A stretch of DNA of 64,000 nucleotides from positions 34,756 through 98,755 of the forward strand of contig JAKAEZ010000004.1 of assembly GCA_021819825.1 (NCBI GenBank). The letters run 5' to 3'. Origin of the DNA: Planctomycetota bacterium (lineage in GTDB: Bacteria; Planctomycetota; Phycisphaerae; WQYP01). Numbering within the stretch: the stretch's first letter is position 1; the number at the start of each line of letters is the position of its first letter. This document shows, in pieces, positions 14,674 to 52,730 of this stretch. The notes below the pieces were generated by a model. It did no database searches. It saw only the letters and a list, made by a program, of their open reading frames with translations, and had not been told where the DNA came from. The translations under genes and the position numbers were made by a program.

Positions 14674-15966
14674 ATGATGGCAACGCTATTTACTGAACAA
14701 TCTGGTTCAAAACGAATTCAATTTCAATTCAATGGTCAACGCAAGTCTCTACGCCTTGGAAAAGTGACCCAACGACAAGCGGAATCGGTACGGGTCAAAA
14801 TTGATGGCATGGTGGCGGCAAAACAAGCCAATTTTCCGATAGACGGGGAAACGTCTACCTGGCTGGCCCAGTTGACTGATGAGTTTCACGCCAAAGTGGC
14901 AGAAACGGGATTAATTCCAGCCAAAGGGAATAGCGCGTTGGGGCCATTTCTGGAACGGTACATCGCATCGCGCACCGATATTAAGACAACTACACTGCGG
15001 TGGTACACCGATGCGAAGGCCGATCTAATAGCGAGTATCGGAGCGTCGAAGCGTATGCCAGATATTACCCCAGTGGACGCGGATGGGATACGACTATACT
15101 TGGAGAGAAAAGGGTTAGGCCCCAACACCGTCCGCCGAAGAATTGGAATATGTCGCCAAATATTTAATGCAGCCAAGCGATACAAACTTATTCAAGATAA
15201 TCCGTTTGCGGGGATGGCCACGGAGGTGCGGAGCAACCCCGATAAATTCCGTTATGTAACCCAAGAAGAAACCAAATCCATACTTGAGCATTGCCCCGAT
15301 GCAACTTGGAAAGCCATTGTCTGTCTGGTGCGTTTTGGCGGCCTGCGATGCCCCAGTGAAGTCTTATCTCTACAATGGGGTCATGTGAACTGGGAAGATT
15401 CACGCCTCACAGTGCCATCGCCCAAGACAGCCCACCATGAGGGTAAATCAAGTCGGGTTATTCCCTTGTTTCCTGAATTACAAAGGGCGCTGACGGAGGC
15501 GCTTGAGGAAGCCCTCCCCGGAGAACAGTATATTATTCAACGATACCGCAGCAACACCGTTAATTTGAGGACGCACTTTGAGCGAATCATCGCCAAGGCA
15601 GGTGTGGCACCATGGCCGAAGCTTTTTGTAAATCTGCGAAGCAGCAGGGAAACGGAACTGATAAAAGATTTTCCGATTCATACCGTAACAGCTTGGCTGG
15701 GTAACAGCCCTCGCATTGCCATGAAGCATTACCTGCAGGTCACGGAAGATGACTACGCCAAGGCCATCGGCATCTCCAATCAACCTGTGGTGCAAAATCC
15801 GGTGCAGCAAGCGCCTGAAATACCCCATAAGGAAGTGATTTGGCAACCGCCGGAAGAGGCAAATGCCTCCCATTGCGGGGATTTGCAGCCATATTCACAT
15901 AATAACATATCTAAATATGCTCGGGACAGGAATCGAACCTGCACTCCTTTCGGAACCGGAACCTAA
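14674..15966 (+). CDS. Tyrosine site-specific recombinase (phage-type integrase)
   Basis: Core-binding domain followed by a catalytic domain with ..GGLRCPSEVLSLQW.., ..LRSSRETELIK.. and ..HTVTAWLGNSPRIAMKHYLQ (catalytic Tyr region). The last ~50 nt of the ORF run into the tRNA-Leu gene on the opposite strand. Confidence 0.9.
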   Translation: MMATLFTEQSGSKRIQFQFNGQRKSLRLGKVTQRQAESVRVKIDGMVAAKQANFPIDGETSTWLAQLTDEFHAKVAETGLIPAKGNSALGPFLERYIASRTDIKTTTLRWYTDAKADLIASIGASKRMPDITPVDADGIRLYLERKGLGPNTVRRRIGICRQIFNAAKRYKLIQDNPFAGMATEVRSNPDKFRYVTQEETKSILEHCPDATWKAIVCLVRFGGLRCPSEVLSLQWGHVNWEDSRLTVPSPKTAHHEGKSSRVIPLFPELQRALTEALEEALPGEQYIIQRYRSNTVNLRTHFERIIAKAGVAPWPKLFVNLRSSRETELIKDFPIHTVTAWLGNSPRIAMKHYLQVTEDDYAKAIGISNQPVVQNPVQQAPEIPHKEVIWQPPEEANASHCGDLQPYSHNNISKYARDRNRTCTPFGTGT

Positions 15967-15998
15967 ATCCGGCGCGTCTGCCAATTCCGCCACCCGAG
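15917..15998 (-). tRNA. tRNA-Leu (anticodon UAG), type II with long variable arm
   Basis: Reverse complement is GCTCGGGTGGCGGAATTGGCAGACGCGCCGGATTTAGGTTCCGGTTCCGAAAGGAGTGCAGGTTCGATTCCTGTCCCGAGCA. It folds with a 7-bp acceptor stem, a GGCGGAATTGG D-arm typical of Leu, anticodon stem CCGGA/TCCGG with loop TTTAGGT, variable arm TCC-GAAA-GGA, and T-loop TTCGATT. No CCA is encoded. Confidence 0.93.
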
Positions 15999-16044
15999 CG
16001 GGCAATGCACCATTTTAACATAGCCCCTGCGTCTTGGCACACGC

Positions 16045-29675: not shown

Positions 29676-30455
29676 TTACCACCATGATATTTTACGTCTG
29701 CGCATCATCGGGAGCAGCGCCAATGCGGGCAATGCTAAAAGCATCCAGGCCGCGGGTTCCGGCACGACCGTTGCCGTGCCGATGAGAGTTCCACTGCTGA
29801 ATTCAAATAAATCGCCGGAACCGCCGATGGGAACCGCAAAGTCCAACTGCGATGGCGTCACCGCAGCATTCGCCGTGCCCGCTTCGTTAATGTTAAATTG
29901 CTGGGCCAGGGACAATCCGCTGATAATATCACCCTCCGCATTTGCCGCCGTCAACGTCGGTGCCAAGCTGCCGCCCACGCTATTGGCTACCTGCTGCAGC
30001 AGCGCCAGATCACCCGGACTGGTGCTCAGCAGGGAAGAAAATGATACCCCATTGGCTGCCGAGTAATTATTGGGGTTAATCACTACCGCCAAGTCTGAGC
30101 TACCGATAGAACCGATAATGGAGTAGTAGCTGGGTTCAGCCGTTAGTGAAAGTAAATCCAAGCCGAAGTTCACCGTACCGGTTGTCGGTGCCGCATCGGA
30201 CAATGACAAACTGCTCCCCATGGAAACCGCACCGACATTTGCCGTACCGGCTGCAATCGGCTGAATAAGAACCAGATAGGGGTCACTAAGAGTAATCGGC
30301 GTGGAGGAGTTGGAAGTGATACTGTACGAAACACTGCCGCCGGGTTGCAGCGCCTGCGATGTACCCGCATCAAGGATCAAGCCTGACACAGCGGCCCCGA
30401 CCGCAATTAACGCCACGTGTGAAAATTTTAAACTTCGCATGATCGAACTCCTCAA
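29676..30455 (-). CDS. PEP-CTERM sorting-signal secreted protein
   Basis: Signal peptide, a Ser/Gly/Thr-rich body, and the C-terminus VVPEPAAWMLLALPALALLPMMRRRK. Confidence 0.8.
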   Translation of the reverse strand: MRSSIMRSLKFSHVALIAVGAAVSGLILDAGTSQALQPGGSVSYSITSNSSTPITLSDPYLVLIQPIAAGTANVGAVSMGSSLSLSDAAPTTGTVNFGLDLLSLTAEPSYYSIIGSIGSSDLAVVINPNNYSAANGVSFSSLLSTSPGDLALLQQVANSVGGSLAPTLTAANAEGDIISGLSLAQQFNINEAGTANAAVTPSQLDFAVPIGGSGDLFEFSSGTLIGTATVVPEPAAWMLLALPALALLPMMRRRKISWW

Positions 30456-39306: not shown

Positions 39307-40260
39307 CTAACCGCCGTTGCGAAGGTCGGTGTAGTCGCGGACCAGATCCTTGCGGCGAGCCATTTCGCTGGCGTAGCGGTTTCCGAGCCATGCGCGATTT
39401 TCCTGCGCCCATTCTGTTAGCCTTGTTTTTCCGGCGGCCGGGGCATCCACAACGAGCCGGCTTTCCATCAGGCCACGAATTTCGTCGCGCGTGATAATGA
39501 CATCGTGAACGAGCTTTCCGGCCACCGCCGCAAACAGGTATCCAACTTCCGGATTCACGGATATGACCGGACGCGGGCACCCGATGATAGTGCCTATCGC
39601 CTTTACGAGTTCGCGATAGGTAAATGTTTCGGGGCCGATGGCTTGGACAATACGGTTGGTGCTATCGCCCGCGCAGCGTACCGCCAACTCCGCCAGATCA
39701 TCCACGTAAATCGGTTGCAACTTGTATTGGCCATCGCCAAACACCCCAAACACGGGCAGGTGCCGTAACACCCATGCGATATTATTAATCAAAATATCCT
39801 CCCGCCCGAAGATCACAGCAGGCCGCAGGATCGTGAAATCCACCCCGGAATCCGTCAGTGCCTGTTCAACTTGCGCCTTGCCGCGAAAATACTCTAAATC
39901 CGAGTTGATATCCGGATTGGTAATACTCACATGCACAATCCGCCGTACACCGGCGGCCTTGGCGGCGACAAACAGGTTCCGACTGTTTTCGATAGCCTCC
40001 GCAAAGCAGAATGTCCGGCTATTGAAACGCACCCAATAGGTGTTGTAAAGTACATCCACACCCGTCAATGCTTCGGCCAGCTTTTTGGGATCATGCCAGT
40101 TAAACGCTTGCACCTCCACGGACCGGCCAAAAGGATTATGCCGTTGCGGCGAGTTGGTCAAGGTTCGTACCCGCGATCCCTGTGCCAGCAACCGCTTGGT
40201 GATATATTTGCCCGAGTAGCCAAAAGCCCCGGTAACCGCATGCAATAACTTATCGCTCAT
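39307..40260 (-). CDS. NAD(P)H-binding SDR-family (NmrA/epimerase-like) oxidoreductase
   Basis: Rossmann motif VTGAFGYSGKYITKRL at the N-terminus. 317 aa. Confidence 0.75.
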   Translation of the reverse strand: MSDKLLHAVTGAFGYSGKYITKRLLAQGSRVRTLTNSPQRHNPFGRSVEVQAFNWHDPKKLAEALTGVDVLYNTYWVRFNSRTFCFAEAIENSRNLFVAAKAAGVRRIVHVSITNPDINSDLEYFRGKAQVEQALTDSGVDFTILRPAVIFGREDILINNIAWVLRHLPVFGVFGDGQYKLQPIYVDDLAELAVRCAGDSTNRIVQAIGPETFTYRELVKAIGTIIGCPRPVISVNPEVGYLFAAVAGKLVHDVIITRDEIRGLMESRLVVDAPAAGKTRLTEWAQENRAWLGNRYASEMARRKDLVRDYTDLRNGG

Positions 40261-40711: not shown

Positions 40712-42883
40712 CTAATTAGCAATCGGAGGCCACGGCCAAGGAGGCGGGCCACCAGCTCCATTCGAACACTGGCCATAGCACTTCACCAAGGTTCCGTAGG
40801 GAACGTTTTGCAGGCCATATTTCTCCGTAGCCCATAGGTAGCAAAGAGTGTGAGCCATTTCAGCGCTGGCCCCAAAGCCGTAAAGCTCCGCCAAGCATCC
40901 ACGTACATATTGCGACCATGGACTGTTTCCGGCGCATTTGCAGAAGCACCGCGCGTTGGCTCCCATGTATGTATAGCTGCACGGGTACTTGTTGCACACC
41001 GGTGAGTCGGCAGGGGCCGGCGGAAAATTCGGCGGGGCTGCTGGCCCCCTCGCCGGCTCCGGCGGTATGGGCCACAGCCGCCAACCGCCCGGCGGCGGGA
41101 TCCAGGGATTAGGTGGAGCGGTACCGTTGTTACCCGTTTCGCCCGCCAGCCCCATTGGGTCCACCGCCGCATCCGCCAGTCCCCCCACATACTCATACAA
41201 ATTCACGCCACCGGCGTAGCCGATCGGATCGCGTTGAATCCACCGGCCGAGCACTGGCGAATATGTTCGATTGCGGACATAGTAAAGCTCACTTTCCGGA
41301 TCGAATCGGTAGCCGCAATAGATGACTTCATTGGCACCGTAACTGCTTTGCACATCGTCATCCGTGAACCAGATGCCATCCGCACCCGGCGCGGTGAAGA
41401 TCAGCGTGTTACCGTACGCGTCGGTGTCGTATGTTTCCACGATGCCGCCGCTGGAATTGGTTAATGCCACCGCGCGATACAGCAAGTCCTGCAGCAAATA
41501 GTAACTTCCAGGTTCCAGGTTCTGACTTCCCAATGCTGCGAACGTCGTGAGTTGGATACACTCATCAATATAGGTACCCCAGACATATTGCCGGATCGGC
41601 GTATCGGTTGAGCCGCTGCCACCGAACGGGTTGCGTTCTTCCACCACCTGCCAGCCGCTCCAGATATAATCCGTGGTGCCGTTGGGAACACTGCCCGTCA
41701 GGCCGCCATTGAAGATTGTTTTCCGCACCCGCCGATTCATGGCATCATATAAATATGTCGTAATGATGAGGCCATCGGATACACGGTTGATCTGAATCAA
41801 TCTGTTGAGCGCGTCATAGGCGTAAATCAGGGTGCCGTCATTTTTCAGATTGCCATTGGAGGCACCGGTTGCGCCATCGTATTGGAATGTGACGGCCGGG
41901 CTGGTTCCCACTGTCCGCTGAATGATCTCGTTGAGCTTGTTGTGATTCCTCTGATCCGTTATCGCACTACCGGCCCCTTCGGGCGTATACACACTGCTGG
42001 TCCAATTGCCCAAGGCGTCAAGGTTATAATTCCGGCTTTGATCGGTATTGGGCAACGCAATGGGCGTAGTAACACTGCCGCCGCCGGTGGCTAATATGCC
42101 GCGCTGATAATCCAATAGCCGGTTCATGGAATCATACGAATCATAAAGGCTGCTGCGTTCTTCGGCGTGCAGCGGGCGTTCAAAGAGTTTGTTGGAACTC
42201 TCATCATAAGCACTGGTAAAGCCCACAGTGACATTGGTGCCATTGAAGTACCGCTTGCCGATCATGCGGCCAGAGCCGTCATAACCAAGCTGATCGGTGC
42301 TGATGCTGCCCCAGGCGGGTGTGGGCAGGCCGGATTGAATCGCCGATCTGGTCTGGGCATCGTTCATATTGGAGCACACCAAACCATTACCCAGCGTTAC
42401 CGTAGCTATTCGGTTGGCTCCAAAGTACTGCCAACTGGCGATCACAGCACTCGTAGCTGCTTCAATAATTTGTTGGCGACGAAAGAGTTTGTCGAAGCTG
42501 TTGTTAATCTGCCTACTGTTGGGATACGTAAACTGGCTTACCGGCAATGAGGTAAAGCCGTCATTGGTGACATAGCGTGTGTTGCCGCCATAAACTTGCT
42601 CTTCTTCCACAGTCCTTCCGATGGAATCATAGACCAAGGTTACATCGGCATTGTTTGTGCCGACGGTATCACGGGCAAATGTAGTCTGGGCCAGGCCGTT
42701 ATATTGGAAGCTTTGCGCAGTCGTGCCGCCAATTCCAGATGCGGGAGTAATCGTGATGTTCGTCTTCCGGCCCATACAATCCCAAGTGTCAGAGAATACC
42801 GAACCGTTTTCGTCCGTGTATGTTACCACATCGCCGGCTGAATCGTACACAAATTCAACATAGCCACCGCATCTCCCTTTCAC
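40712..42883 (-). CDS. Rhs/YD-repeat protein module (5'-truncated core + C-terminal variable tip)
   Basis: YD repeats throughout. Rhs core end ..YVWGTYIDECIQL..IYCGYRFDPESELYYVRNRTYSPVLGRWIQRDPIGYAGGVNLYEYVGG..DPMGLAGE, followed by a ~140-aa Pro/Cys-rich tip. The only start is a GTG that overlaps the stop of the upstream ORF. There is no N-terminal delivery domain. Confidence 0.88.
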   Translation of the reverse strand: MKGRCGGYVEFVYDSAGDVVTYTDENGSVFSDTWDCMGRKTNITITPASGIGGTTAQSFQYNGLAQTTFARDTVGTNNADVTLVYDSIGRTVEEEQVYGGNTRYVTNDGFTSLPVSQFTYPNSRQINNSFDKLFRRQQIIEAATSAVIASWQYFGANRIATVTLGNGLVCSNMNDAQTRSAIQSGLPTPAWGSISTDQLGYDGSGRMIGKRYFNGTNVTVGFTSAYDESSNKLFERPLHAEERSSLYDSYDSMNRLLDYQRGILATGGGSVTTPIALPNTDQSRNYNLDALGNWTSSVYTPEGAGSAITDQRNHNKLNEIIQRTVGTSPAVTFQYDGATGASNGNLKNDGTLIYAYDALNRLIQINRVSDGLIITTYLYDAMNRRVRKTIFNGGLTGSVPNGTTDYIWSGWQVVEERNPFGGSGSTDTPIRQYVWGTYIDECIQLTTFAALGSQNLEPGSYYLLQDLLYRAVALTNSSGGIVETYDTDAYGNTLIFTAPGADGIWFTDDDVQSSYGANEVIYCGYRFDPESELYYVRNRTYSPVLGRWIQRDPIGYAGGVNLYEYVGGLADAAVDPMGLAGETGNNGTAPPNPWIPPPGGWRLWPIPPEPARGPAAPPNFPPAPADSPVCNKYPCSYTYMGANARCFCKCAGNSPWSQYVRGCLAELYGFGASAEMAHTLCYLWATEKYGLQNVPYGTLVKCYGQCSNGAGGPPPWPWPPIAN

Positions 42884-43982: not shown

Positions 43983-44840
43983 CTAGTTGCAGCAATTGCA
44001 CCGTACCTGGAAAGTGTCTCCGTGGAAAATGGACCCCACCACCTTGGTGAATCCAAATTTCCAAACGCCTATTGTATCCAATATTTTGACCTCGTAGATC
44101 AGTGTATACGTGATTATCTGGGTGCCATCCGCGCAGGGGCTGGCGGTCACAATCGGGGTGCAGGGAATGACGACGGCGGAAAAGTGGCCGCCGGGAACAG
44201 TCGTGAATCCCGTCCAATAGTGTGCCACTATCTGGGCGCTGGGGCTTGGGCACACTTTATTCTCACGGACCACGACGTGAAAGGTTGCCCAGAAGCCTGC
44301 GTGGAACGTGTCTGTGGCGGTGACAATCGCAAGGCCCGACGCATCCGCCCCCGCCACCGCTCGGCCACCGACATACTCATACAAATTAATTCCACCGGCG
44401 TAGCCGATCGGATCGCGTTGCAGCACCCGAGTCGCCACTCCTGTGGCCTTTCGGGATTTCGGCTCCTGCCTCAACACCGTGCCGGGAATCGAGCTGTAGG
44501 TGCGATTGCGGACGTAATACAGTTCCGCTTCCGGATCGTGTTGATTAAGCGGGGTTGCCAAGCAGCGACATTGTGGCGAAGCGTCATCCAATCCGCGAAA
44601 TCCCGGTCTGTCGGGATATCCGCAGATGATGATTTCGTTGGCACTGGCGCTTCGCTCAATGACCAATGAGTAATGATCAATGAATAGAACGGGGAAGCCG
44701 TATTTTCGATCCGTGATCAGTCTTCCTTGATCAGTGGAAATGTCTCCTAACTCCCAACTCCTGCATGCTCGTCCAACCCCTGTCCCCTGTAACCCCGGCC
44801 TCGCGGCGGGATCGTGAAATTTTGCGTTCAGTGCGACCAT
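43983..44840 (-). CDS. Orphan Rhs C-terminal fragment (core end + ~125-aa tip); the 5' part of the ORF is the heptamer element
   Basis: ..SANEIIICGY[26-aa insert]DPEAELYYVRNRTYS[insert]LQRDPIGYAGGINLYEYVGGRAVAGADASGL, then a unique tip. Rhs homology starts near 44646. Upstream of that point the ORF is read through repeat copy C. Confidence 0.6.
   Translation of the reverse strand: MVALNAKFHDPAARPGLQGTGVGRACRSWELGDISTDQGRLITDRKYGFPVLFIDHYSLVIERSASANEIIICGYPDRPGFRGLDDASPQCRCLATPLNQHDPEAELYYVRNRTYSSIPGTVLRQEPKSRKATGVATRVLQRDPIGYAGGINLYEYVGGRAVAGADASGLAIVTATDTFHAGFWATFHVVVRENKVCPSPSAQIVAHYWTGFTTVPGGHFSAVVIPCTPIVTASPCADGTQIITYTLIYEVKILDTIGVWKFGFTKVVGSIFHGDTFQVRCNCCN
44647..44840 (-). repeat. Heptamer-array composite element, copy C
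   Basis: Head TTGCGTTCAGTGCGACCAT (44822-44840), TGTCCCC/GTAACCC units, CTCCTAA/CTCCCAA/CTCCTGC (44744-44764), TGATC units and CAATGA units. 38 nt (GCGCTTCGCTCAATGACCAATGAGTAATGATCAATGAA) are identical to copy D. Confidence 0.7.
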
Positions 44841-45063
44841 CAGAGCAACTCCGCAATCGACAAATGCTAGCCACAGTTTACCCCGCCGGACATGTTCTCA
44901 CAACGCTCCGAAATCGGGAGGGTGGCTACACCCTTAAATTGCACCGAAACCCGAAAACCGGTCGCGTCCCCGTTTCACTTTCTGGCCCGGGTAGTCGGGA
45001 TATGGAAGGTGATTGCTTGACCGCCGGTTGCGTGGCCCGTTAAGGGCCTCGCTTCCCCGTGCA

Positions 45064-46491
45064 TCAATATTGGGTGGCATTGTATATATGGCCGCACCGC
45101 CGCGATAGGCGTTGAAAGCGCGACGCTTTAAATTGTCTTTCAAAGTCACCATGCCAGTTCCCGAAACTTGAGTCGGCCAAAAGGAATTTCACTATTCTAC
45201 CGCCGCGGCGCGGCCGCAGGCAATCGCCAAAGTTCCGCACCCAGCGGGCCGCCGGTGATCGCGGCCCGGCCATCGGGCGATACCGCGATCGATGTGCAGC
45301 CGCCGATGATGTCGGGGGATCTCCAGACCATTCGCCCGTTGCTGGTATCCACCGCACAAAAAAACCGATACCGCCTGCAATGTTACTTGTAAGCGCAGCA
45401 ATTACACATTTAGGATTTCCGCTGTTAGCGAGTTGAACGATGTACCATTGATCGGCGTACTCAAAGTGAATGGAGATGTGGCGAACGAGCGCCCCGTTTT
45501 GGTCACTGAACGCAGAGATACCGGGCACCACGCCAATCGTCCCAGTCGCGGCGAGAAAATCGTTCCCGCCAGGCGTCTTGAGCAGGGATCCGGTGAAAGG
45601 CATGTGATTTGTTGCACCTATCTGCTTGCGGGGCCGACGTCGGTGGCCGCTGAATATGAATATTTGGGCACCGCCCTCCACAGCTACCCGGTGGGCGCTG
45701 ATGTAGGCCAGGCCGGCGGGTACCCGGAAGCGCCGTGAAAAGTAGCGTGCGATTGGGGCGGGCGTTGCCGAGTCCGTACGCCATATTACGCACACCGGAC
45801 CGGGAGTGGTGAGGGAATCATAACCCACCGCCAGTTCTTTTCCAGAGGTTGAAAAACTTAGCGCAGTGGCGGGATTATTCCAATCCGTGCGCAATTGGAT
45901 GGGGTTGCTTCTGGCATTCCCGCTCCACAGGGCCACAAAATTTTTGTTCCCCAGCCTCGTTGATGTAGCGACAAGGTGAGTTTCTGGCGAGGTTGCACCG
46001 CAAACACCGAATACGGGATTTGACCAAGACTGTGGAGTTGGCAACTGGCTGATAGAAACCGTGGGTGTCCGTAGATTGGCAGCGTCAGGCCAAAATGGCT
46101 CCCGTGGATGGGACTGTAAAATGCTTAAAAATTTTTGCGACTGCCATGCGTCGTCGAGTCGGAATAGTTTTGATCCTTGGGGACGGGAGGCGAGCACGGG
46201 GCCGGAACTCAACGCAAATACCGCCAATGACGGCGATAAAAATCCGATTGCGCCCGGGCTGAACCAATCGTTTTTATCTCCCTTTGATATCCTTAAATGG
46301 GGCGACGCAGTTCGCGCTGCCATCGCTGCGAGATCGCCTCGATTCCACCACGAGTAAAGAAGAAGTGGTACCGGCGGCTTCGGTGGTGCATGAGTTGAGT
46401 TCCCGTTGCGGTGACAGCCAGCGATGGTTAATAGCACCACGGAAACAGGCAACGCGTTTCGCCACGCTGTGAGCGATTGTTTTATTCTCAT
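45064..46491 (-). CDS. Lipoprotein (possible beta-propeller), candidate immunity protein for the 46488-48905 Rhs tip
   Basis: MRIKQSLTAWRNALPVSVVLLTIAGC contains a lipobox. The ATG at 46491 overlaps the Rhs TGA (ATGA at 46488-46491); the track start is 46506. Confidence 0.55.
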   Translation of the reverse strand: MRIKQSLTAWRNALPVSVVLLTIAGCHRNGNSTHAPPKPPVPLLLYSWWNRGDLAAMAARTASPHLRISKGDKNDWFSPGAIGFLSPSLAVFALSSGPVLASRPQGSKLFRLDDAWQSQKFLSILQSHPREPFWPDAANLRTPTVSISQLPTPQSWSNPVFGVCGATSPETHLVATSTRLGNKNFVALWSGNARSNPIQLRTDWNNPATALSFSTSGKELAVGYDSLTTPGPVCVIWRTDSATPAPIARYFSRRFRVPAGLAYISAHRVAVEGGAQIFIFSGHRRRPRKQIGATNHMPFTGSLLKTPGGNDFLAATGTIGVVPGISAFSDQNGALVRHISIHFEYADQWYIVQLANSGNPKCVIAALTSNIAGGIGFFVRWIPATGEWSGDPPTSSAAAHRSRYRPMAGPRSPAARWVRNFGDCLRPRRGGRIVKFLLADSSFGNWHGDFERQFKASRFQRLSRRCGHIYNATQY

Positions 46492-48905
46492 TTGGCACCA
46501 CAGCACTTTTGGAACCCGTAATTAATTCGGGCATTGAGGCCTAAAAGAAGTCGCAACAACCACCCGCCCTCGTCACCGGTTACAAACAGGCAGCCGGCAG
46601 TGCAACGGATGGCGCATTGGGAAAGCCCGAGTTGCTCGGCCATGACACTCTGGTAGCAGCATTCTGGGCTGCAAAGCCCCTTTTTACGGCATGTACCATC
46701 CGCCACTTGCCACGCGGGTGTGTTCCCAAGGCTCCAATGGTGGGAGAGGCATCGGTTGGCACATCCAACAAAACAGGCCTGTGTAGGGATTCCGAACGGG
46801 TGGACCACTGGAACTGGTGGCAAGGGAAGCCACCCCGGCGGTGGAGAAAGCCTTTGCACCTCCGTGCAGAGAAAGCGGGAGACATCCGCAGCACAACACG
46901 ACCATGGCTTATTGGGGCAGCTACAGACCGCGGATTGGGATTGGCACTTTCGGGCGTAACGGGAGGTCGCCCGCTCACAGGTCTGTTGGTAGGGGACTAA
47001 CCATGGTGGCGTTCGCAATTCTAGCGGGCCCGCAACAGCGCCATTGTTACCGCTCGTATCCACCTCCGCCACCGCTCGTCCCCCCACATATTCATACACA
47101 TTCACGCCGCCCGCATAGCCGATTGGATCGCGCTGCAGCCACCGGCCAACCGAAATGCCTTCGGCGTCCGTCAGGAACATGCGGTTACGAACGTGGTACA
47201 GCCGCGTTTCCGGATCGTATCGGTAACCGCAGAAGATCATGTCGTTGGCACCGTAGGTGAAGCCTGACCCGACATCGTCATCGGTGAACCACACGCCGTC
47301 GGGGCCGGGGCCGGTATAGATGATCGTCTGGCCGTAAGCATCAGTATCATAAGCCTCGACGATATTTCCGCTCGAATTGGTCAACGCCACCGCGCGATAC
47401 AGCAAATCCTGTAACAGGTAATAGGTTCCCGGTGCAAGATTTCCGCCGCCCAATGTTGCAAGCGTCGTGAGTTGGATGCACTCGTCAATGTTGAGGCCTC
47501 CAAACCTCCATATCTGCGGCCGAAATCCCGTCGGGGCCGAGGCCCCCGTGCGCGCCGCTGCGCCGGGATACGTGCCCCAGATATATTGCCGAATCGGCGT
47601 GTCAGTGGAACCTGTTCCACCAAACGGATTGCGTTCCTCCATTACCTGATTGCCCAAGTAAATACAGTCGGTTGTGCCGTTGGCAATTCCCCCGCCGAAT
47701 CCGCCGTTACTTATCGTCTTGCGGATTCGTCGGTTGAACGCGTCAAAGACGTAGCTGCCCAGAACCGTTGCACCGCCCGCCATATTCACTTGGATCTGCC
47801 GATTCATCGCATCGAATTGATAAGTACGGAAGCTGTCATCAGCCAGGTTGCCGTTAGAGGCTCCCGGCGAGCCGTCGTAGGTGAATGGCCTGCCACCGAA
47901 ATTGGTGATCTGGTTAAGCCGATTGTGGTTGCGCTGCTGGACCGAGGGAGTGTCGCCCATAGGCGTGTAGGTCAGCGATCGCCAATTTCCCATGCCGTCG
48001 AGGTTCCATGCCTCCTGTGCGTTGACACTCGGCAACGTGGTTGGCGTAGCGACACTTCCTCCGCCGGCATTCTGATAACCTCCGGTGCTGTTCAACGTCC
48101 CTCTCTTATATTGCAACAGCCTGTTGATGGAATCATAACCGGGTATTGGTGAGGCGATGTTACCGTTGTTGTCCACTGGCTGATACAGGAAACTTCTGCT
48201 TTCCGCGTGCAACGCCCGTTCATAGAATTTGTTATCCGCCGGATCAAAGGCGGTGGTGTTGCCCACTACGGACGTGGTGTTGTTGTAGGCAAAAGTGCTG
48301 GAATTGATGCCGCCGAAAAGGTACCGTTTGGCAATCATGCGGCCAGAGCCGTCATAACCCAATCGGTCACTGGAGGGTGTGCCCCACGCCGGATTGGGTA
48401 CCGTGCCGAACTGCACCGCACTGTGGGTTCTGGCATTGTTGAGCATGGTTTGAATGATGCCATTGCCAAGGGCAACTTCCGCAGTTCTCTGTGGCCCGAA
48501 GAATTGCCAACTGGCGATCACGGCACTGGTGGCCGCTTCGATAATCTGTTGGCGGCGGTACAGGGCGTCATAGCTACTGTTGATCTGCCGCGCGTTGGGG
48601 AAGGTAAACTGGCTAACTGGAAGTGATGTAAATGCGTCATTGGTGACATACCGGCTGTTGCCGCCGTAGGCTTGAGCTTCTTCCACGGTTCGCTGGATGG
48701 AATCGTAGACCAGTGTGACATCAGCATTGTTGCCGCTGGCGGTATCGCGGGCAAAGGTGGTCTGCGCCAGGCCGTTGTATTGGAAGCTTTGCGCGGTGGT
48801 GCCCCCAATTCCTGATGCGGGAGCAATCGCTACATCTGTCTTCCGGCCCATACAATCCCAAGTGTTAGAGAATACCGAACCGTTTTCGTCCGTGTATGTT
48901 ACCAC
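46488..48905 (-). CDS. Rhs/YD-repeat protein module (5'-truncated core + Cys-rich C-terminal tip)
   Basis: Paralog of 40712-42883, with the same YD core and core end ..RWLQRDPIGYAGGVNVYEYVGGRAVAEVDTSG, followed by a ~190-aa tip with about 19 Cys. YD-like codons continue upstream of the GTG as far as a TGA at 48973-48975, which is the stop of the preceding membrane-protein ORF. Confidence 0.88.
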   Translation of the reverse strand: MVTYTDENGSVFSNTWDCMGRKTDVAIAPASGIGGTTAQSFQYNGLAQTTFARDTASGNNADVTLVYDSIQRTVEEAQAYGGNSRYVTNDAFTSLPVSQFTFPNARQINSSYDALYRRQQIIEAATSAVIASWQFFGPQRTAEVALGNGIIQTMLNNARTHSAVQFGTVPNPAWGTPSSDRLGYDGSGRMIAKRYLFGGINSSTFAYNNTTSVVGNTTAFDPADNKFYERALHAESRSFLYQPVDNNGNIASPIPGYDSINRLLQYKRGTLNSTGGYQNAGGGSVATPTTLPSVNAQEAWNLDGMGNWRSLTYTPMGDTPSVQQRNHNRLNQITNFGGRPFTYDGSPGASNGNLADDSFRTYQFDAMNRQIQVNMAGGATVLGSYVFDAFNRRIRKTISNGGFGGGIANGTTDCIYLGNQVMEERNPFGGTGSTDTPIRQYIWGTYPGAAARTGASAPTGFRPQIWRFGGLNIDECIQLTTLATLGGGNLAPGTYYLLQDLLYRAVALTNSSGNIVEAYDTDAYGQTIIYTGPGPDGVWFTDDDVGSGFTYGANDMIFCGYRYDPETRLYHVRNRMFLTDAEGISVGRWLQRDPIGYAGGVNVYEYVGGRAVAEVDTSGNNGAVAGPLELRTPPWLVPYQQTCERATSRYARKCQSQSAVCSCPNKPWSCCAADVSRFLCTEVQRLSPPPGWLPLPPVPVVHPFGIPTQACFVGCANRCLSHHWSLGNTPAWQVADGTCRKKGLCSPECCYQSVMAEQLGLSQCAIRCTAGCLFVTGDEGGWLLRLLLGLNARINYGFQKCCGAK

Positions 48906-48974
48906 ATCACTGGCTAAATCATAAAAAAATTCCCTGCTTGATCCATCCTGAAATTGGGTAACCGCAGTAATGGC

Positions 48975-49313
48975 TCACTCTTCCCGCTTATTGCCGCCCC
49001 CGTGGCGACGGTGCCAAGTCCGTATCACTTGCCGCGTTCTGATGAGCATATCCGGATTCCGCGCCAAAAGGATCCAAATCGCGGCCACGGTGATGTTTAA
49101 GGACTGGGCGAGGTCTGAGTATTGGTGGCTATATCGGAGCTCGGTCACGAAGATAACCAAGACTACCAAGGTCGCCTCGGCAAGGCGAATTTCCCGGAGC
49201 TTCGCTGTGTCCCTTCGCTTGATTGCTGGCACACGGTAAAATAGCAGTTCGTTCGTCGGTGTCTGAAGGATCACGAACGCGAGCATGCCAACAAGCCACG
49301 GCTGAATCTGCAT
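48975..49313 (-). CDS. Small membrane protein, candidate immunity protein for the orphan tip at 49404-50027
   Basis: 112 aa with hydrophobic segments (LVGMLAFVILQ, LVVLVIFV, ITVAAIWILLA). It is the first ORF downstream of the orphan tip. Confidence 0.45.
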   Translation of the reverse strand: MQIQPWLVGMLAFVILQTPTNELLFYRVPAIKRRDTAKLREIRLAEATLVVLVIFVTELRYSHQYSDLAQSLNITVAAIWILLARNPDMLIRTRQVIRTWHRRHGGGNKREE

Positions 49314-49403
49314 TGTAAAACCTCCTTATCTAAGGGCGTTCCGCCAAGGGCGTGCCAGCCCGACGGTCGCAGGTTTCCGCCGGCACAGAACGAGGTCGGG
49401 CCG

Positions 49404-50027
49404 CTACTTAGTCCCGCCCCCTGAAAGGCTCCCGCATGGGGGATAGGGCGAGGCACTCGCCGGGTCCGTATTGCCGAATGTCGTGATTTGGCACCTGCAG
49501 TGGCCTGCCAGCCTCACTATCCCCAAGAACGCGACCGGCCTGCCTTGGCCTCGCCTGGGTCCGGGAAGCACTCCAGTGCCGGAAACGCAAATTGTGCCCG
49601 CCGGGGGATTGCAGGGTTTACAGGGGCAGGGGGGAGTGCAAATTTCCGAGATTCCGTAGAGCAGCGAAGCAAGACAACCGGCCAGCACGAGCAGGTCGCC
49701 GCTGCGGAGGGCGCTTGCTACACATATCGCGTAAAGATCCAGCCACTGGGACACGCATTTCTGGTATGCCGCCTCGCTAGCAAGGCCTGTCGGGTCCAGG
49801 GCAGTCACCGCCCGTCCTCCCACATACTCATACAAATTCACGCCACCGGCGTAGCCGATCGGAGCGCGTTGCAGCACCCGAGTCGCGACTCCTGTGGCCT
49901 GTTGAAATTTCGGCTCCTGCCTCAACACCGTGCCGGGGATCGAGTTGTAGGATTGCACGGATACGCCGCTGTGGCGGCCTTTGCCGTTCAGTTTGGTTGC
50001 CGAAGTTGTTTCGCTCAACGCGACCAA
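49404..50027 (-). CDS. Orphan Rhs C-terminal fragment (very short core remnant + Cys-rich ~125-aa tip)
   Basis: ..YNSIPGTVLRQEPKFQQATGVATRVLQRAPIGYAGGVNLYEYVGGRAVTALDPTGL, then a tip with about 11 Cys. It starts with TTG inside a copy of the 19-nt head motif (50008-50027) and translates as MVALSE. Confidence 0.55.
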   Translation of the reverse strand: MVALSETTSATKLNGKGRHSGVSVQSYNSIPGTVLRQEPKFQQATGVATRVLQRAPIGYAGGVNLYEYVGGRAVTALDPTGLASEAAYQKCVSQWLDLYAICVASALRSGDLLVLAGCLASLLYGISEICTPPCPCKPCNPPAGTICVSGTGVLPGPRRGQGRPVAFLGIVRLAGHCRCQITTFGNTDPASASPYPPCGSLSGGGTK

Positions 50028-50154
50028 GAAACAATTCCTTTCCTTTATCCGAAGAGCACGCGTTAACTATACCGCATGGCACAACATCAGCAAACTCGCC
50101 GGTAGACTACAACATTGCGTAACTGGCCAAGACGCCGATTCCCCCACCGTTAAA

Positions 50155-50586
50155 TTAGCTACTCGCGTCTCCGCTGCACTTCCTCGGGAGGACGACCGCC
50201 AATCCGAAGGCGAACGCCGCCACGACGAAAAGGAAATCCAGGAATGTAGCGACTGCGAACCCCGCTGGTGCGGTCCGGCCAAACACGATCCCTACCGTCT
50301 CCCTACCGGAAAAATACAATGCCAATGCCAATGCGATCAACGTTCGAATAAGGTACGCACGTCGCCCGCGGGCGGCCGTCCCCGCGACGGCGATCGCGTG
50401 GGGCCGTAGGAGTCGCCTTCCGGCAACGAGAATCTGCCATACCGCCAGCGGATTTATCAGCACACTCGACGCGAACCAGAATCGTTCGCCCAGGCGGAAT
50501 GGTGCCAGTGCAACCAGCGTGCCGGAATAGACCAATACACACGCCAGAACTCCGCCGCAAAGCCTGTTCCAGAGACGCAATCGCAC
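50155..50586 (-). CDS. Multi-pass membrane protein, orphan immunity candidate
   Basis: 143 aa with four hydrophobic segments. It lies downstream of the degenerate Rhs remnant attached to repeat copy D. Confidence 0.45.
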   Translation of the reverse strand: MRLRLWNRLCGGVLACVLVYSGTLVALAPFRLGERFWFASSVLINPLAVWQILVAGRRLLRPHAIAVAGTAARGRRAYLIRTLIALALALYFSGRETVGIVFGRTAPAGFAVATFLDFLFVVAAFAFGLAVVLPRKCSGDASS

Positions 50587-50761
50587 TCGAGTTACTCCTT
50601 ATCGCAAGCTATACTCCGCTCGGCCCCTGGCGGTACATTGCGATGGCCTGAAAACCCAATAAAGGGCCGATTTTGTGGAAGAATCTACCAGTGCAAACGT
50701 ATCACGGCTGGCCGAGTCGCGTATAATAAAAAACTTACTTCGACATATCCCCCGCCGGGAT

Positions 50762-50987
50762 AGCCGCAGAAGATGGTTTCATTGGCACAAGCGCTTCGCT
50801 CAATGACCAATGAGTAATGATCAATGAACAAATCATTGGATGTTCGGCGTTTCTGATCAGTGATCCGTGATCGTTGATCAATGGTGTTCACCCCCGATTC
50901 CCCCTGTAACCCGTAACCTGTAACCTGTGACCTCCGCCCGCGGGCGGTTGTGCTGGAATGGCGAAATTGTTCGTTCAACGCAACCAT
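50762..50987 (-). repeat. Heptamer-array composite element, copy D, fused to a degenerate Rhs-core remnant
   Basis: Head GTTCGTTCAACGCAACCAT (50969-50987) and palindrome CCGCCCGCGGGCGG (50934-50947). Arrays are GTAACCC/GTAACCT/GTAACCT/GTGACCT (50906-50933), TGATCAG/TGATCCG/TGATCGT/TGATCAA (50854-50883) and CAATGAC/CAATGAG/TAATGAT/CAATGAA (50801-50828). TAGCCGCAGAAGATGGTTTCATTGGCAC encodes ANETIFCGY on the minus strand, and no Rhs tip follows it. Confidence 0.75.
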
Positions 50988-51239
50988 GGGCTGCCCGCCA
51001 ATACACAATGGATTCGACGCCCACATTCTAACCCCCCGCCCCCGTCTATGCCAAATACCAACTGCCAAATGTTCTCCCTCGGGACCTGTGACAAATTCTG
51101 CCAGGTCTTTCGGGGCCAAAAGCCTTAACGTTTTAGCGCTGTTGCGCATTACCCCTCTTACTGCCACCCTATAGCGTTCCCGATGAATAGCTCAGACCTG
51201 CTGAACAATGTTCTTTGACAAATGAATAACATGCCGCCA

Positions 51240-51780
51240 CAGTGATCGCGGAAAAGAATCCTGAACGGAAACCCGTTGCTCGTCACTCGTTGAGTGCCCG
51301 TGTGTTTCGTTGCTCGCTGCTCGTTAAGCGCAGCGTTTCGTTGTTCGTTGTAGCCAACAGCCCGCGCCCATTCCACGCAATTCTCAAATTACTGATCAAT
51401 ACTGACCAATACCGACCAATACTGTAAAACGCCTCCTAACTCCTGAATGCTGAATGCCGCCCCCCCCCTTAAAACATCTTGAGCTTCTTGAGCAACTTGA
51501 ATTACACCCTCTAAAATCAACGCTTCCATCAACTTGCCCAACTTGGGCAAGTTGCCCCCGAACTTGGGCATCTTGGGCACCTTGAAATTCGCAAAGTCTT
51601 CTAACCCCTATTCTCCTAACTGCTAACTTCTGAATGCCCCCCTGGGGACCCAAAACATCTTGATCGCCTTGGCCGTCGCAACGACAGCTCTACTCTCTAC
51701 CCTCAACTGCTCCGCGCCCGGCAGGTGCCCGTCCCGGCGAGCCAGCATTCTACTGCACTCTACTGCTCAACTATCTACTG
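51240..51780. repeat. Dense field of short tandem repeats (7-, 9- and 10-nt units), non-coding
   Basis: TCGTTG-containing heptamers (51276-51350). CAATACTGAT/CAATACTGAC/CAATACCGAC (51397-51426). CTCCTAA/CTCCTGA/ATGCTGA (51433-51453). 9-mers AACTTGCCC/AACTTGGGC/AAGTTGCCC..AACTTGGGC/ATCTTGGGC/ACCTTGAAA (51531-51587). TCTACTG-type units (51740-51790). Confidence 0.7.
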
Positions 51781-51785
51781 TTCTC

Positions 51786-52730
51786 CTACTCCTCCCGCCG
51801 CCGCCTGAATAAGGACATTTGCCGGCCTGCGGTTGCCAGCAGGATTCCAAACGCCAGCATTTCGACGGTACCTGGCAGCGGTACGGGTTGTGGTGAAATA
51901 GAAAGCGATCCAGCCAGAACGCCTCCGGAGAAATTGACCAAATCAATATTCGCGGCCACAACACCATTGGAATTGGTGAGAAAATCTGATGTCGTGGGTA
52001 ATGCAGCAACCTCGGGAATGTTTGAAAAATTTGTCGGGTAACCGGCCAGATAATTCGTGAAATCGCCAAAAATCTGGTAAGACTCGGTGGAACTTGGATC
52101 GCTGCCGCCATTCAATAAAGCATTGACCACATCGGATTCCGTTAATGTCGGTGAACCGGCAGCTAATATATTCTGGCTTTCCAAGTTTTGTGTTTCAGCC
52201 TGCAGGAAGTTTGAGAACACCGTATCAAAGTTACTGCCGAGATAGTTGCTAACGCTGTTTGCCGCAAAGCCGATCACGACTCCCTGGGTGATTACACCAC
52301 TGGCAGTCGTGGTACGGTATAGGCCGTAAGCATCAAAGTTTTCAAAGGCGGCAGGCGGTTCGCCCACGCTGGCCCCAAATGCAATTGCCCCATCGCTAAA
52401 AGGCCCTTCGCCAAATCCGATCTGGCTAGGTCCGCTGCTGAGCCTGAAGTCAACATTCAGTTCAGAGAGTGAATCGCCGGCACCCGACACGCCGGCGTTG
52501 GGGCCATTCCATGTTCCGGTTGCCAAAACATTGGGCGGGGGCGGCTGATAGCCGGGGGGAACGCGGACAGTAGCTTCAGCCTGTCGCACCGGACTAACGA
52601 GTGAAGCGGTTCCAGCAACCATGGAAAACAAAATTACTTTAACCGTGAGACGCGGTAGATTCATTGATTCCATCCAAAAAGCAACCTTTATTTTGCCGGG
52701 GGTTGTCACCCGACTCGACATCCAAGTCAA
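51786..52730 (-). CDS. Secreted protein with a PEP-CTERM-like C-terminal sorting signal
   Basis: Signal peptide (MESMNLPRLTVKVILFSMVAGTASLVSPVRQAEA; the start is probably near 52673). C-terminus PVPLPGTVEMLAFGILLATAGRQMSLFRRRREE. Confidence 0.7.
   Translation of the reverse strand: MTWMSSRVTTPGKIKVAFWMESMNLPRLTVKVILFSMVAGTASLVSPVRQAEATVRVPPGYQPPPPNVLATGTWNGPNAGVSGAGDSLSELNVDFRLSSGPSQIGFGEGPFSDGAIAFGASVGEPPAAFENFDAYGLYRTTTASGVITQGVVIGFAANSVSNYLGSNFDTVFSNFLQAETQNLESQNILAAGSPTLTESDVVNALLNGGSDPSSTESYQIFGDFTNYLAGYPTNFSNIPEVAALPTTSDFLTNSNGVVAANIDLVNFSGGVLAGSLSISPQPVPLPGTVEMLAFGILLATAGRQMSLFRRRREE

Follow-up and report, generated by a model that had tools for sequence, protein, structure and literature searches.

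The 64-kb window analysed here, which is the whole 64,000-nt stretch of contig JAKAEZ010000004.1 from the Planctomycetota assembly GCA_021819825.1, contains at 40.7-51.2 kb an array of Rhs toxin modules, all encoded on the minus strand, whose coding sequences are interrupted by four short extra blocks (X1, X2, X3, and X3'). We regard these blocks, with a probability of roughly 55%, as a miniature repeat family that was seeded by non-homologous events and spread by recombination in the Rhs genes of one Phycisphaerae lineage. X3 would be the best-defined member of this family, while X1, with the right arm and the tail start in common, and X2, with mainly the stem in common, would represent larger or more diverged relatives. 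An earlier note, made from the sequence of the window alone, had described the blocks as related in-frame insertions in both orientations. All four are indeed located where that note placed them, on the minus (coding) strand, with lengths divisible by three, free of stop codons and with the peptides it gave, and the same small family is found in sense as well as in antisense orientation, always in frame. The copies from other assemblies likewise consist of multiples of three nucleotides and are free of stops in the frame of the host gene. As judged from the reading frames, the blocks reside within open reading frames (ORFs) and should be read through as extra peptides.

The module underlying X3 comprises about 50 nt and consists of an imperfect hairpin, whose stem is CCCGA(T)/(A)TCGGG and whose loop contains CTCCT, and of the tail TTCGGCTCCTGCCTCAAC behind it. 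An nhmmer model of this module matches the window at 44422-44479 (plus strand, E 5e-18) and, for the degenerate copy X3', at 49873-49930 (E 2e-16). X3 had been thought to replace the seven codons PVLGRWI; its location, its length of 72 nt and its frame stand, but the replacement turns into a net insertion of 17 codons in a MAFFT alignment. X1 splits the segment WGTY|IDECIQL of RhsB, which is contiguous in RhsA, with the position and the peptide originally given, and the palindrome GGGGCCGAGGCCCC claimed for it is present at 47533-47546. The DNA of X1 was read in seven copies from other assemblies, which occupy the same site every time. As claimed, CGGGATTTCGGC followed by CCTCAAC is carried by X1 on the coding strand and by X3 on the non-coding one, and because the module recurs in other genomes, this succession corresponds to the right hairpin arm and the tail of a real module. 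The first 14 bases of the respective arm and tail start of X1, GACGGGATTTCGGCC, are unchanged in every X1 copy read and common to X3 on the opposite strand, and the X3 module also has the invariant core GACGGGATTTCGGC of X1.

Arms of the type TCCCGR...YCGGGA, or a one-base variant, are present in every block, and together with the DNA folds and the consensus fold they identify the blocks as palindromic, hairpin-forming repeats. In the consensus fold of X3, the outer stem is invariant, the inner stem contains two compensatory pairs, and the CTCCT/AGGAG loop is kept. The DNA folds of four X1 variants show one common architecture (z -1.2 to -2.8), the inner stem of which changes between copies from CTGGGCC/GGCCCAG to CGGGGCC/GGCCCCG, i.e., in a compensatory fashion. 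Because the fold z-scores of the blocks range from about 0 to -4.1, the hairpin evidence is one of structural recurrence, not of strong thermodynamics or covariation. Neither for the blocks nor for the region was an Rfam match obtained. In an AlphaFold model of the homologue P0024, which has a mean pLDDT (predicted local distance difference test) of 59 and 361 of 842 residues at 70 or above, mostly in shell strands, X1 corresponds to residues 466-491 and matches a segment of pLDDT <50 (467-490), with confident strands at 456-464 and 493-500 on either side. With regard to surface loops, X1 occupies a low-confidence loop between confident strands of the model, which is compatible with residence in a tolerated loop; the region of X2a (see below) and X3 is uninformative, since pLDDT values <50 extend throughout it and the toxin.

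Within the window, GGGATTTCG occurs four times in 64 kb, compared to 1.18 expected occurrences, and three of these fall into X1, X2, and X3. A 9-mer common to three segments turned up in no more than 2.5e-4 of triples drawn at random from the window, an upper bound with overlapping segments and paralogous copies retained in the sample. Smith-Waterman alignments with shuffles gave p values of 0.006-0.02 in the claimed orientations and no significant values in the opposite ones, and nhmmer profiles of X1, X3, and the window type of X2 (X2w) matched each other in the window only at E~2. These in-window statistics are too weak by themselves, and the decisive support comes from related genomes. When copies from homologues were used, X1 aligned with reverse-complemented X3 at p 0.0005-0.005 in every pair, and nothing was obtained in sense orientation. 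The 25-mer TCGGGATTTCGGCTCCTGCCTCAAC, with up to six mismatches allowed, yielded 17 matches in about 0.5 Mb (the window plus ~0.43 Mb of related loci, mostly Rhs-flanking) vs. 0-1 in shuffles. Moreover, all five X1 copies of the searched set are among the best sub-threshold matches of the X3 model, in one relative orientation and at positions 26-43 or 30-43.

The X3 module recurs in Rhs-type loci of about ten other assemblies (in the following, L numbers denote related loci from other assemblies, P numbers homologous proteins, and W the window), and modules of this type occupy at least four positions in both orientations, both of which are found within one ORF of L077. Site 3 is filled by the module in W, L001, L054, L071, L075 (two copies), and L076, whereas the gene coding for P0049 (L069) has an empty site 3 and carries, at a fourth site about 40 codons upstream (APGA|...|FTDDD), an X3-type block for which a count by hand gives ~83% identity to X3. 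P0017, which is ~90% identical to P0049, contains neither the block at site 4 nor X2b, the two proteins thus forming a similar pair that differs at two sites. L077 carries the module twice in one ORF: a sense copy in the leader, where comparison with six other leaders shows a clean insertion of 48 nt, and, ~100 nt downstream, an antisense copy in tandem; additional copies were found in L078 and L070. With E values between 1e-18 and 7e-11, the nhmmer model recovers copies on either strand of the host ORF, the two of L077 among them, and a metagenome scan with a 21-mer of X3 retrieved three loci, all of the Rhs type. One DNA motif is read in three frames, namely as PKSR (antisense), GFR (X1 and X2w) and RDL/RDF (leader copies), and the conserved unit is therefore a nucleic acid and not a peptide.

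The X2 site after CGY accommodates one of three unlike-looking blocks, X2a (PDNKRVSTDIGTGLN), X2b (PDYGIVIMVIGTGL), or X2w, the last of which has homologues in L006, L008, L031, L036, P0122, and P0145. X2a and X2b are composed of arms flanking a variable interior of 22-25 nt, and an X2a copy located after EFVY near the N-terminus of P0038 (L070) exhibits the same termini, TATCCCGAT ... GATATCGGGACGGGT, at 24 of 24 nt around another interior. [quoted passage not shown] The placement of X2 in one family with X1 and X3 holds only in part: X2w has the stem and mini-hairpin ATCCCGACAGACCGGGAT and one 10-mer in common with them, but the link is weak, the 10-mer varying among the homologues and being exact in two of five X2w copies.

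The degree of conservation sets the blocks apart from their hosts. In a small sample of five sequences containing X2a and X3 from four assemblies, nucleotide diversity (pi) amounts to 0.031 for X2a and 0.032 for X3 vs. 0.17, 0.17, and 0.26 for three flanking core segments. Divergence is thus about sixfold lower in X2a and X3 than in the Rhs codons next to them, and third positions vary at 3/15 and 1/24, respectively (4/39 together), compared to a total of 31/42 in the flanks. Amino-acid differences among 22 orphan modules follow the same pattern, with values of 0.08-0.10 for the blocks, which are the least variable segments, and 0.14-0.31 for the flanks. Two X1 copies in paralogues of L001 are identical, although their flanks differ by ~20-30%. 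The low divergence of the blocks excludes a variable loop evolving together with its host, and their conservation points to either recent spread or selection acting on the DNA or RNA.

The homologues, those of RhsB among them, are RHS repeat-associated (core) proteins from metagenome-assembled genomes of Phycisphaerae/Planctomycetota. Most of 120 homologues have empty sites (WGTY|IDEC, CGY-RF/RY-DPE, and SPxLGRW), and only a minority carry blocks, X1 always consisting of 26 amino acids at one site; P0024 contains X1, X2a, and X3 together. The blocks are absent from most Phycisphaerae homologues and from Rhs loci of Chromatiales and are hence not ancestral across taxa, and the alignment of related Rhs genes called for by the earlier note indeed reveals presence/absence polymorphism. 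A peptide search with the blocks alone retrieved 28 proteins, all of the Rhs type except for one, which is an antisense ORF spanning a copy of X3. Of the 28 proteins, 22 share an architecture consisting of a core end (GANEIIYCGY), X2a, DPETELYYVRNRTYN, X3, QRDPIGY.., and a variable toxin, and most of the 22 are orphan modules starting with a degenerate-core leader (MVALNEQF...LFIDHYSLVIERSA).

Several comparisons indicate how the blocks travel. L080 and L081, with and without X1, differ by exactly 78 nt; over ~100 nt to the left and right they are 95-100% identical, and a few substitutions lie close to the junction, so that the insertion may have been precise or may have involved a short conversion tract. 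Between L082 and L083, identity is 100% over ~800 nt and ends 28 nt ahead of X1, beyond which the two diverge; X1 thus entered together with an exchanged C-terminal cassette. The idea of a recombination breakpoint lying exactly at the block edge was rejected, since that of P0040/P0047 lies 28 nt upstream of X1 and hence is not site-specific. How a cassette is captured at a syntenic locus is directly illustrated by RhsA, whose toxin part plus ~70 nt past the stop codon (40712-41250) is ~99% identical to a stand-alone orphan (L071:10440-10990, GCA_021844265.1). This orphan carries X2a and X3 and is located between an MGMT-like gene and a gene for an NmrA-type epimerase, the latter of which is also present in the window (39307-40260). 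The crossover occurred just 3' of X3 in the conserved DPIGY..NLYEYV stretch, and RhsA therefore stayed empty. Homologous recombination demonstrably moves blocks between Rhs genes, and it is this transfer that the evidence covers; the current activity of the element in the lineage, as proposed earlier, is not borne out. The targeted recombination scar that the earlier note named as an alternative would be another possible origin of the blocks.

In the scenario of a miniature repeat family, the blocks would pass between Rhs genes on tracts of homologous recombination or gene conversion, including swaps of whole C-terminal cassettes. The copies at non-homologous sites and in inverse orientation would additionally require a non-homologous step, and new sites may have been seeded rarely by a hairpin-dependent copy-and-paste or strand-switching process that leaves no target duplication. 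The surviving copies would be those which are in frame, stop-free and placed in tolerated loops, and their excess conservation may be due to short conversion tracts that have spread them recently, or else to selection for the hairpin in DNA or RNA.

A number of observations weigh against this scenario. No unambiguous copy was found outside of Rhs-type loci in the window and the ~0.43 Mb of related DNA, nor any copy in 7.3 Gb of plasmid sequence, and translations of the blocks in sense, antisense and all open frames retrieved either Rhs-type proteins or nothing from 5.8 billion proteins, these peptide searches with segments of 20-30 amino acids being sensitive to near-identical copies only. No candidate transposase was seen, an unrelated IS66 transposase near one locus being the only one noted, although no genome-wide search was made; the X3 type has no terminal inverted repeat, its hairpin being internal; and no target-site duplication was detected at the near-isogenic filled and empty junctions of the L077 leader and L080/L081. 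The independent insertion events are few (about six to eight), and sites 3 and 4 represent analogous positions of neighbouring repeats (xPxxxGxW), at which out-of-register conversion could mimic transposition. Moreover, the link between X1 and X3 rests on 14-17 nt and that between X2 and X3 on 10 nt, covariation in the X3 hairpin is thin with its two compensatory pairs, and the DNA sample used for the conservation values is small. With respect to the distribution of the repeats, one degenerate copy is located in a stop-containing spacer inside an Rhs array, and ATCCCGR is not enriched in the window (19 found vs. 24 expected). Isolated matches to GGGATTTCGG in L034 and L057 were discarded, as they show no further similarity.

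An interpretation overlapping with that of a repeat family takes the blocks as functional DNA or RNA signals of the cassette system that are selected and not selfish, which is a possibility to be taken seriously, though on balance an improbable one. The hairpins may provoke breaks or stalls and thereby stimulate recombination at the core/toxin junction, or they may act in the mRNA: the coding strand of X3 contains AGGAG in the loop of the hairpin at 44425-44457 (minus strand), 11 nt upstream of an in-frame GTG (GTG CTG CAA CGC, i.e., VLQR, followed by DPIGY), so that it possibly represents an internal ribosome-binding site for expressing the toxin part alone, starting with (V)LQRDPIGY. A second AGGAG is present in the tail of X3. 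Such roles would agree with the blocks being the most conserved part of the 5' region of the orphans, synonymous sites included, with the near-universal presence of X2a and X3 in the ~22 orphan modules from many assemblies, with the location of all sites within the last ~170 core codons, where cassettes are swapped, with the retention of the CTCCT/AGGAG loop while the inner stem varies, and with the loss of the hairpin arm in orphan module 2, which may be decaying. However, the observed crossovers lie outside of the blocks, one 3' of X3 and the other 28 nt 5' of X1, most full-length Rhs genes contain no blocks, no associated enzyme has been identified, and the Shine-Dalgarno motif was recognized by inspection of the sequence only and shows a long spacing of 11 nt. 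A more specific variant, which we consider unlikely and which is drawn by analogy to the attC sites of integrons, would regard hairpin plus tail as a hitherto undescribed type of portable exchange signal at the core/toxin junction, either recognized by a dedicated enzyme or processed as a hairpin, which would start recombination or expression and would hence be nearly invariant amid drifting codons.

It is equally doubtful that the blocks are ordinary lineage-specific loop indels, each of which arose once and was shuffled among paralogues, their shared motifs reflecting coincidence or codon convergence (the codons for P-D and I-G, for example, are mutually reverse-complementary). Each block of the window does occur at one site in most of the homologues carrying it, recombination clearly moves blocks, the in-window alignment statistics are marginal, and the X2 motif varies among homologues; but independent indels would hardly account for an X3 module at non-homologous positions and in inverse orientation with E values down to 7e-11, for X2a termini that are identical at two sites, or for one motif occurring in three frames, and the far lower divergence of the blocks than of their flanks at synonymous sites is the opposite of what a variable loop would show. 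Untranslated intervening sequences, either skipped by ribosomal bypassing or removed like a small intron, are very improbable, even though the blocks are hairpin-rich, sit at conserved motifs and leave the flanking protein motifs intact: all copies are stop-free multiples of three, the peptide length is conserved, no Rfam match was obtained, and the blocks are too short for self-splicing introns. They are also far too small for inteins, and an assembly artefact was dismissed because independent assemblies from NCBI, ENA, and JGI agree.

Similar hairpins were also noted apart from the blocks. The bare stem TCCCGA-loop-TCGGGA is present in a group II intron (L012 and L023) and in a toxin-side ORF (L016 and L021). 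The intron fragment (L012:5342-5530 and L023:5880-6063) matches Rfam RF02003 with 30-32 bits, which is less than the gathering score. It follows an Rhs-immunity pair closely on the downstream side, starts with GTGCG, and contains three TCCCGAT/ATCGGGA hairpins, which are probably unrelated to the Rhs blocks and might be due to chance or to insertion of the same mini-hairpin into the intron; if the blocks were portable exchange signals, the threefold occurrence of TCCCGAT-loop-ATCGGGA beside Rhs genes might reflect a shared binding protein. The ORF contains a mini-hairpin, TCCCGA-GGCTG-TCGGGA (L016:1015-1055 and L021:3678-3718), in frame (SPEAVG) and ~200 nt downstream of the end of the Rhs core. 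More small in-frame indels were observed in the N-terminal and middle parts of Rhs genes (L001:1245-1334 and L028:1780-1869; L018:378-434 and L069:634-690; P0122). Examples are QHAQRRGLDSLPNRLG after DTWDC, SRRAGISAGGALAGERLQ in P0122, and GACPD(G/C)(P/L)Q before Y(D/T), the last of which includes TCCCGAT and, in one copy, has TGGGATTTCGGG behind it. These indels may be further members of the same phenomenon.

Table 1. Rhs genes, orphan modules, inserted blocks, and hairpins in the window.
Feature	Position	Strand	Remarks
RhsA (Rhs gene A)	40712-42883	minus	723 aa, from ORF list; "empty" reference for the blocks
Empty site 1 of RhsA	between 41569 and 41570		
Empty site 2 of RhsA	within 41291-41323		
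Empty site 3 of RhsA	within 41225-41275		
192-aa ORF			between RhsA and orphan module 1
Orphan module 1	43983-44840	minus	degenerate core leader, then X2, X3, and toxin
X3	44421-44492	minus	72 nt, before QRDPIGY, in orphan module 1; module antisense to gene
X3 hairpin	44425-44457	minus	ATCCCGA-AAG-GCCAC-AGGA-GTGGC-GAC-TCGGGT; nested
X2 (window type, X2w)	44538-44615	minus	78 nt, after CGY, in orphan module 1
X2 mini-hairpin	44600-44617	minus	ATCCCGACAGACCGGGAT (18 nt), then TTCG; 5' end of X2
480-aa ORF			between orphan module 1 and RhsB
RhsB (Rhs gene B)	46488-48905	minus	805 aa, from ORF list; host of X1
X1	47490-47567	minus	78 nt, 26 codons, peptide PGAAARTGASAPTGFRPQIWRFGGLN; sense, hairpin then tail; at WGTY|IDEC
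GACGGGATTTCGGCC	47518-47532	minus	right hairpin arm and tail start of X1
X1 branched hairpin	47525-47569	minus	outer stem ATCCCG/CGGGAT around two sub-hairpins, one with GGGGCC..GGCCCC palindrome
Orphan module 2	49404-50027	minus	shortened leader (MVALSE...) joined directly to X3'
X3'	49872-49943	minus	degenerate X3 copy in orphan module 2; left hairpin arm TCCCGA changed to TTTCAA
Core-end fragment of Rhs	50685-51167	minus	ends CGYP...
Further mini-hairpin	50745-50763	minus	CTATCCC-GGCGG-GGGATAT; just after CGY codons of the core-end fragment; X2 site

The features of the array are summarized in Table 1. Pfam searches with the local ORFs yielded a single RHS_repeat match and nothing else; the core ends in a DPxG..DPxG motif and is followed by a variable toxin, as judged from the translations, Pfam and the names of the homologues, and the two orphan modules show partial core homology and exchange by recombination, as expected for Rhs orphan cassettes. 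The architecture of orphan module 1 is matched by the ~22 orphan modules from other assemblies. Orphan module 2 has QRAPIGY where the others have QRDPIGY, and because of this and of its shortened leader joined to X3', it may be in decay. The Rhs genes of the window are short, with a core of ~600 amino acids, and start without an obvious N-terminal delivery domain.

Between the core-end fragment and orphan module 2, ~800 nt (49951-50756) show no relation to Rhs; a hydrophobic 143-aa ORF at 50155-50586 (minus strand, no Pfam match) might represent an immunity gene left stranded. Four heptamers in tandem (TCATTGA TCATTAC TCATTGG TCATTGA, coding for FIDHYSLVIE) are present in the orphan leaders at 44653-44684 and 50797-50828 (minus strand), a stretch which is 92% conserved between the two window copies and recurs in orphan leaders of many other assemblies; from its sequence, it could be a binding or slippage motif, or merely decayed core sequence. 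Upstream of the orphan leaders, a family of 31-nt direct repeats (D9, ..CTCCTAACTCC..GAATGC) occurs at 44738-44768, 51427-51457, and 51607-51637. The region is flanked by genes for two PEP-CTERM-type secreted proteins (29676-30455 and 51786-52730, minus strand), as seen from the C-terminal VPEP/hydrophobic/RRR pattern of the translations, and one tRNA gene is located at 15918-15999.

Among the known systems, the palindromic elements of Rickettsia (RPEs; Ogata et al., 2000) come close. According to PMC10969869, RPEs are repeats of ~100-150 bp which form about ten families and occur in many unrelated genes and in intergenic DNA; RPEs and Rhs blocks alike are short, form hairpins, lie in frame within genes, where they add to the peptide (as predicted for the blocks) and are apparently tolerated in loops, and come without a transposase of their own. 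The Rhs blocks differ from RPEs in measuring 39-78 nt, in being confined to one gene family, in occurring in three frames and both orientations, and in being more conserved than the codons of their hosts; their separation from RPE-1 to RPE-10 is one of size (39-78 nt vs. ~100-150 bp) and not of sequence comparison. The comparison with RPEs drawn in the earlier note is thus apt for palindromic repeats read through in frame, but does not extend to dispersal through unrelated genes and intergenic DNA, the blocks being found in Rhs-type loci only.

With MITEs and the REP/REPIN elements of bacteria (REP, repetitive extragenic palindromic), the blocks share the character of small non-autonomous repeats with an inverted repeat or hairpin, variable interiors between conserved arms (X2a) and head-to-head arrangements (L077 and L078). 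Unlike MITEs, they show no target-site duplication, no parent insertion sequence has been identified, and the X3 hairpin is internal and accompanied by a conserved single-copy tail. In contrast to REP/REPIN systems, they are intragenic and not high-copy extragenic, and no REP-associated tyrosine transposase (RAYT) has been identified, although no genome-wide search was made. Sequences subject to translational bypass have a length not bound to whole codons, tolerate stops, and show matching take-off and landing codons, whereas the blocks are stop-free multiples of three. Intragenic repeats of the ERIC, BOX, and Correia types occasionally form in-frame fusions in ORFs, but these repeats are mainly intergenic and their intragenic location is the exception (PMC10969869), while it is the rule for the Rhs blocks. 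Orphan toxin cassettes and the displacement of C-termini by homologous recombination are known from Rhs and contact-dependent inhibition (CDI) systems, and the window resembles these with its two Rhs genes and its orphans, in which the vestige of a core end is followed by a toxin and a downstream gene (PMC3150448, PMC7043789).

The blocks split the homology between Rhs cores and orphans into pieces of ~30-60 nt and should thereby shape where toxin swapping can occur. To our knowledge, conserved hairpin insertions which break core homology into short pieces have not been reported from the described Rhs/CDI orphan systems. On a practical level, the blocks can mislead gene callers and alignments of Rhs proteins. 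We know of in-frame selfish repeats almost only from Rickettsia. If our interpretation is true, the blocks would constitute a second, independent case, in a free-living phylum (Planctomycetota) and in a single, fast-recombining toxin family: a miniature repeat resembling RPEs that is restricted to one family of polymorphic toxins and may be exploited by it. Their occurrence in three frames and their conservation above that of the host codons would offer a clean test between parasites riding on gene conversion and signals of the cassette system.

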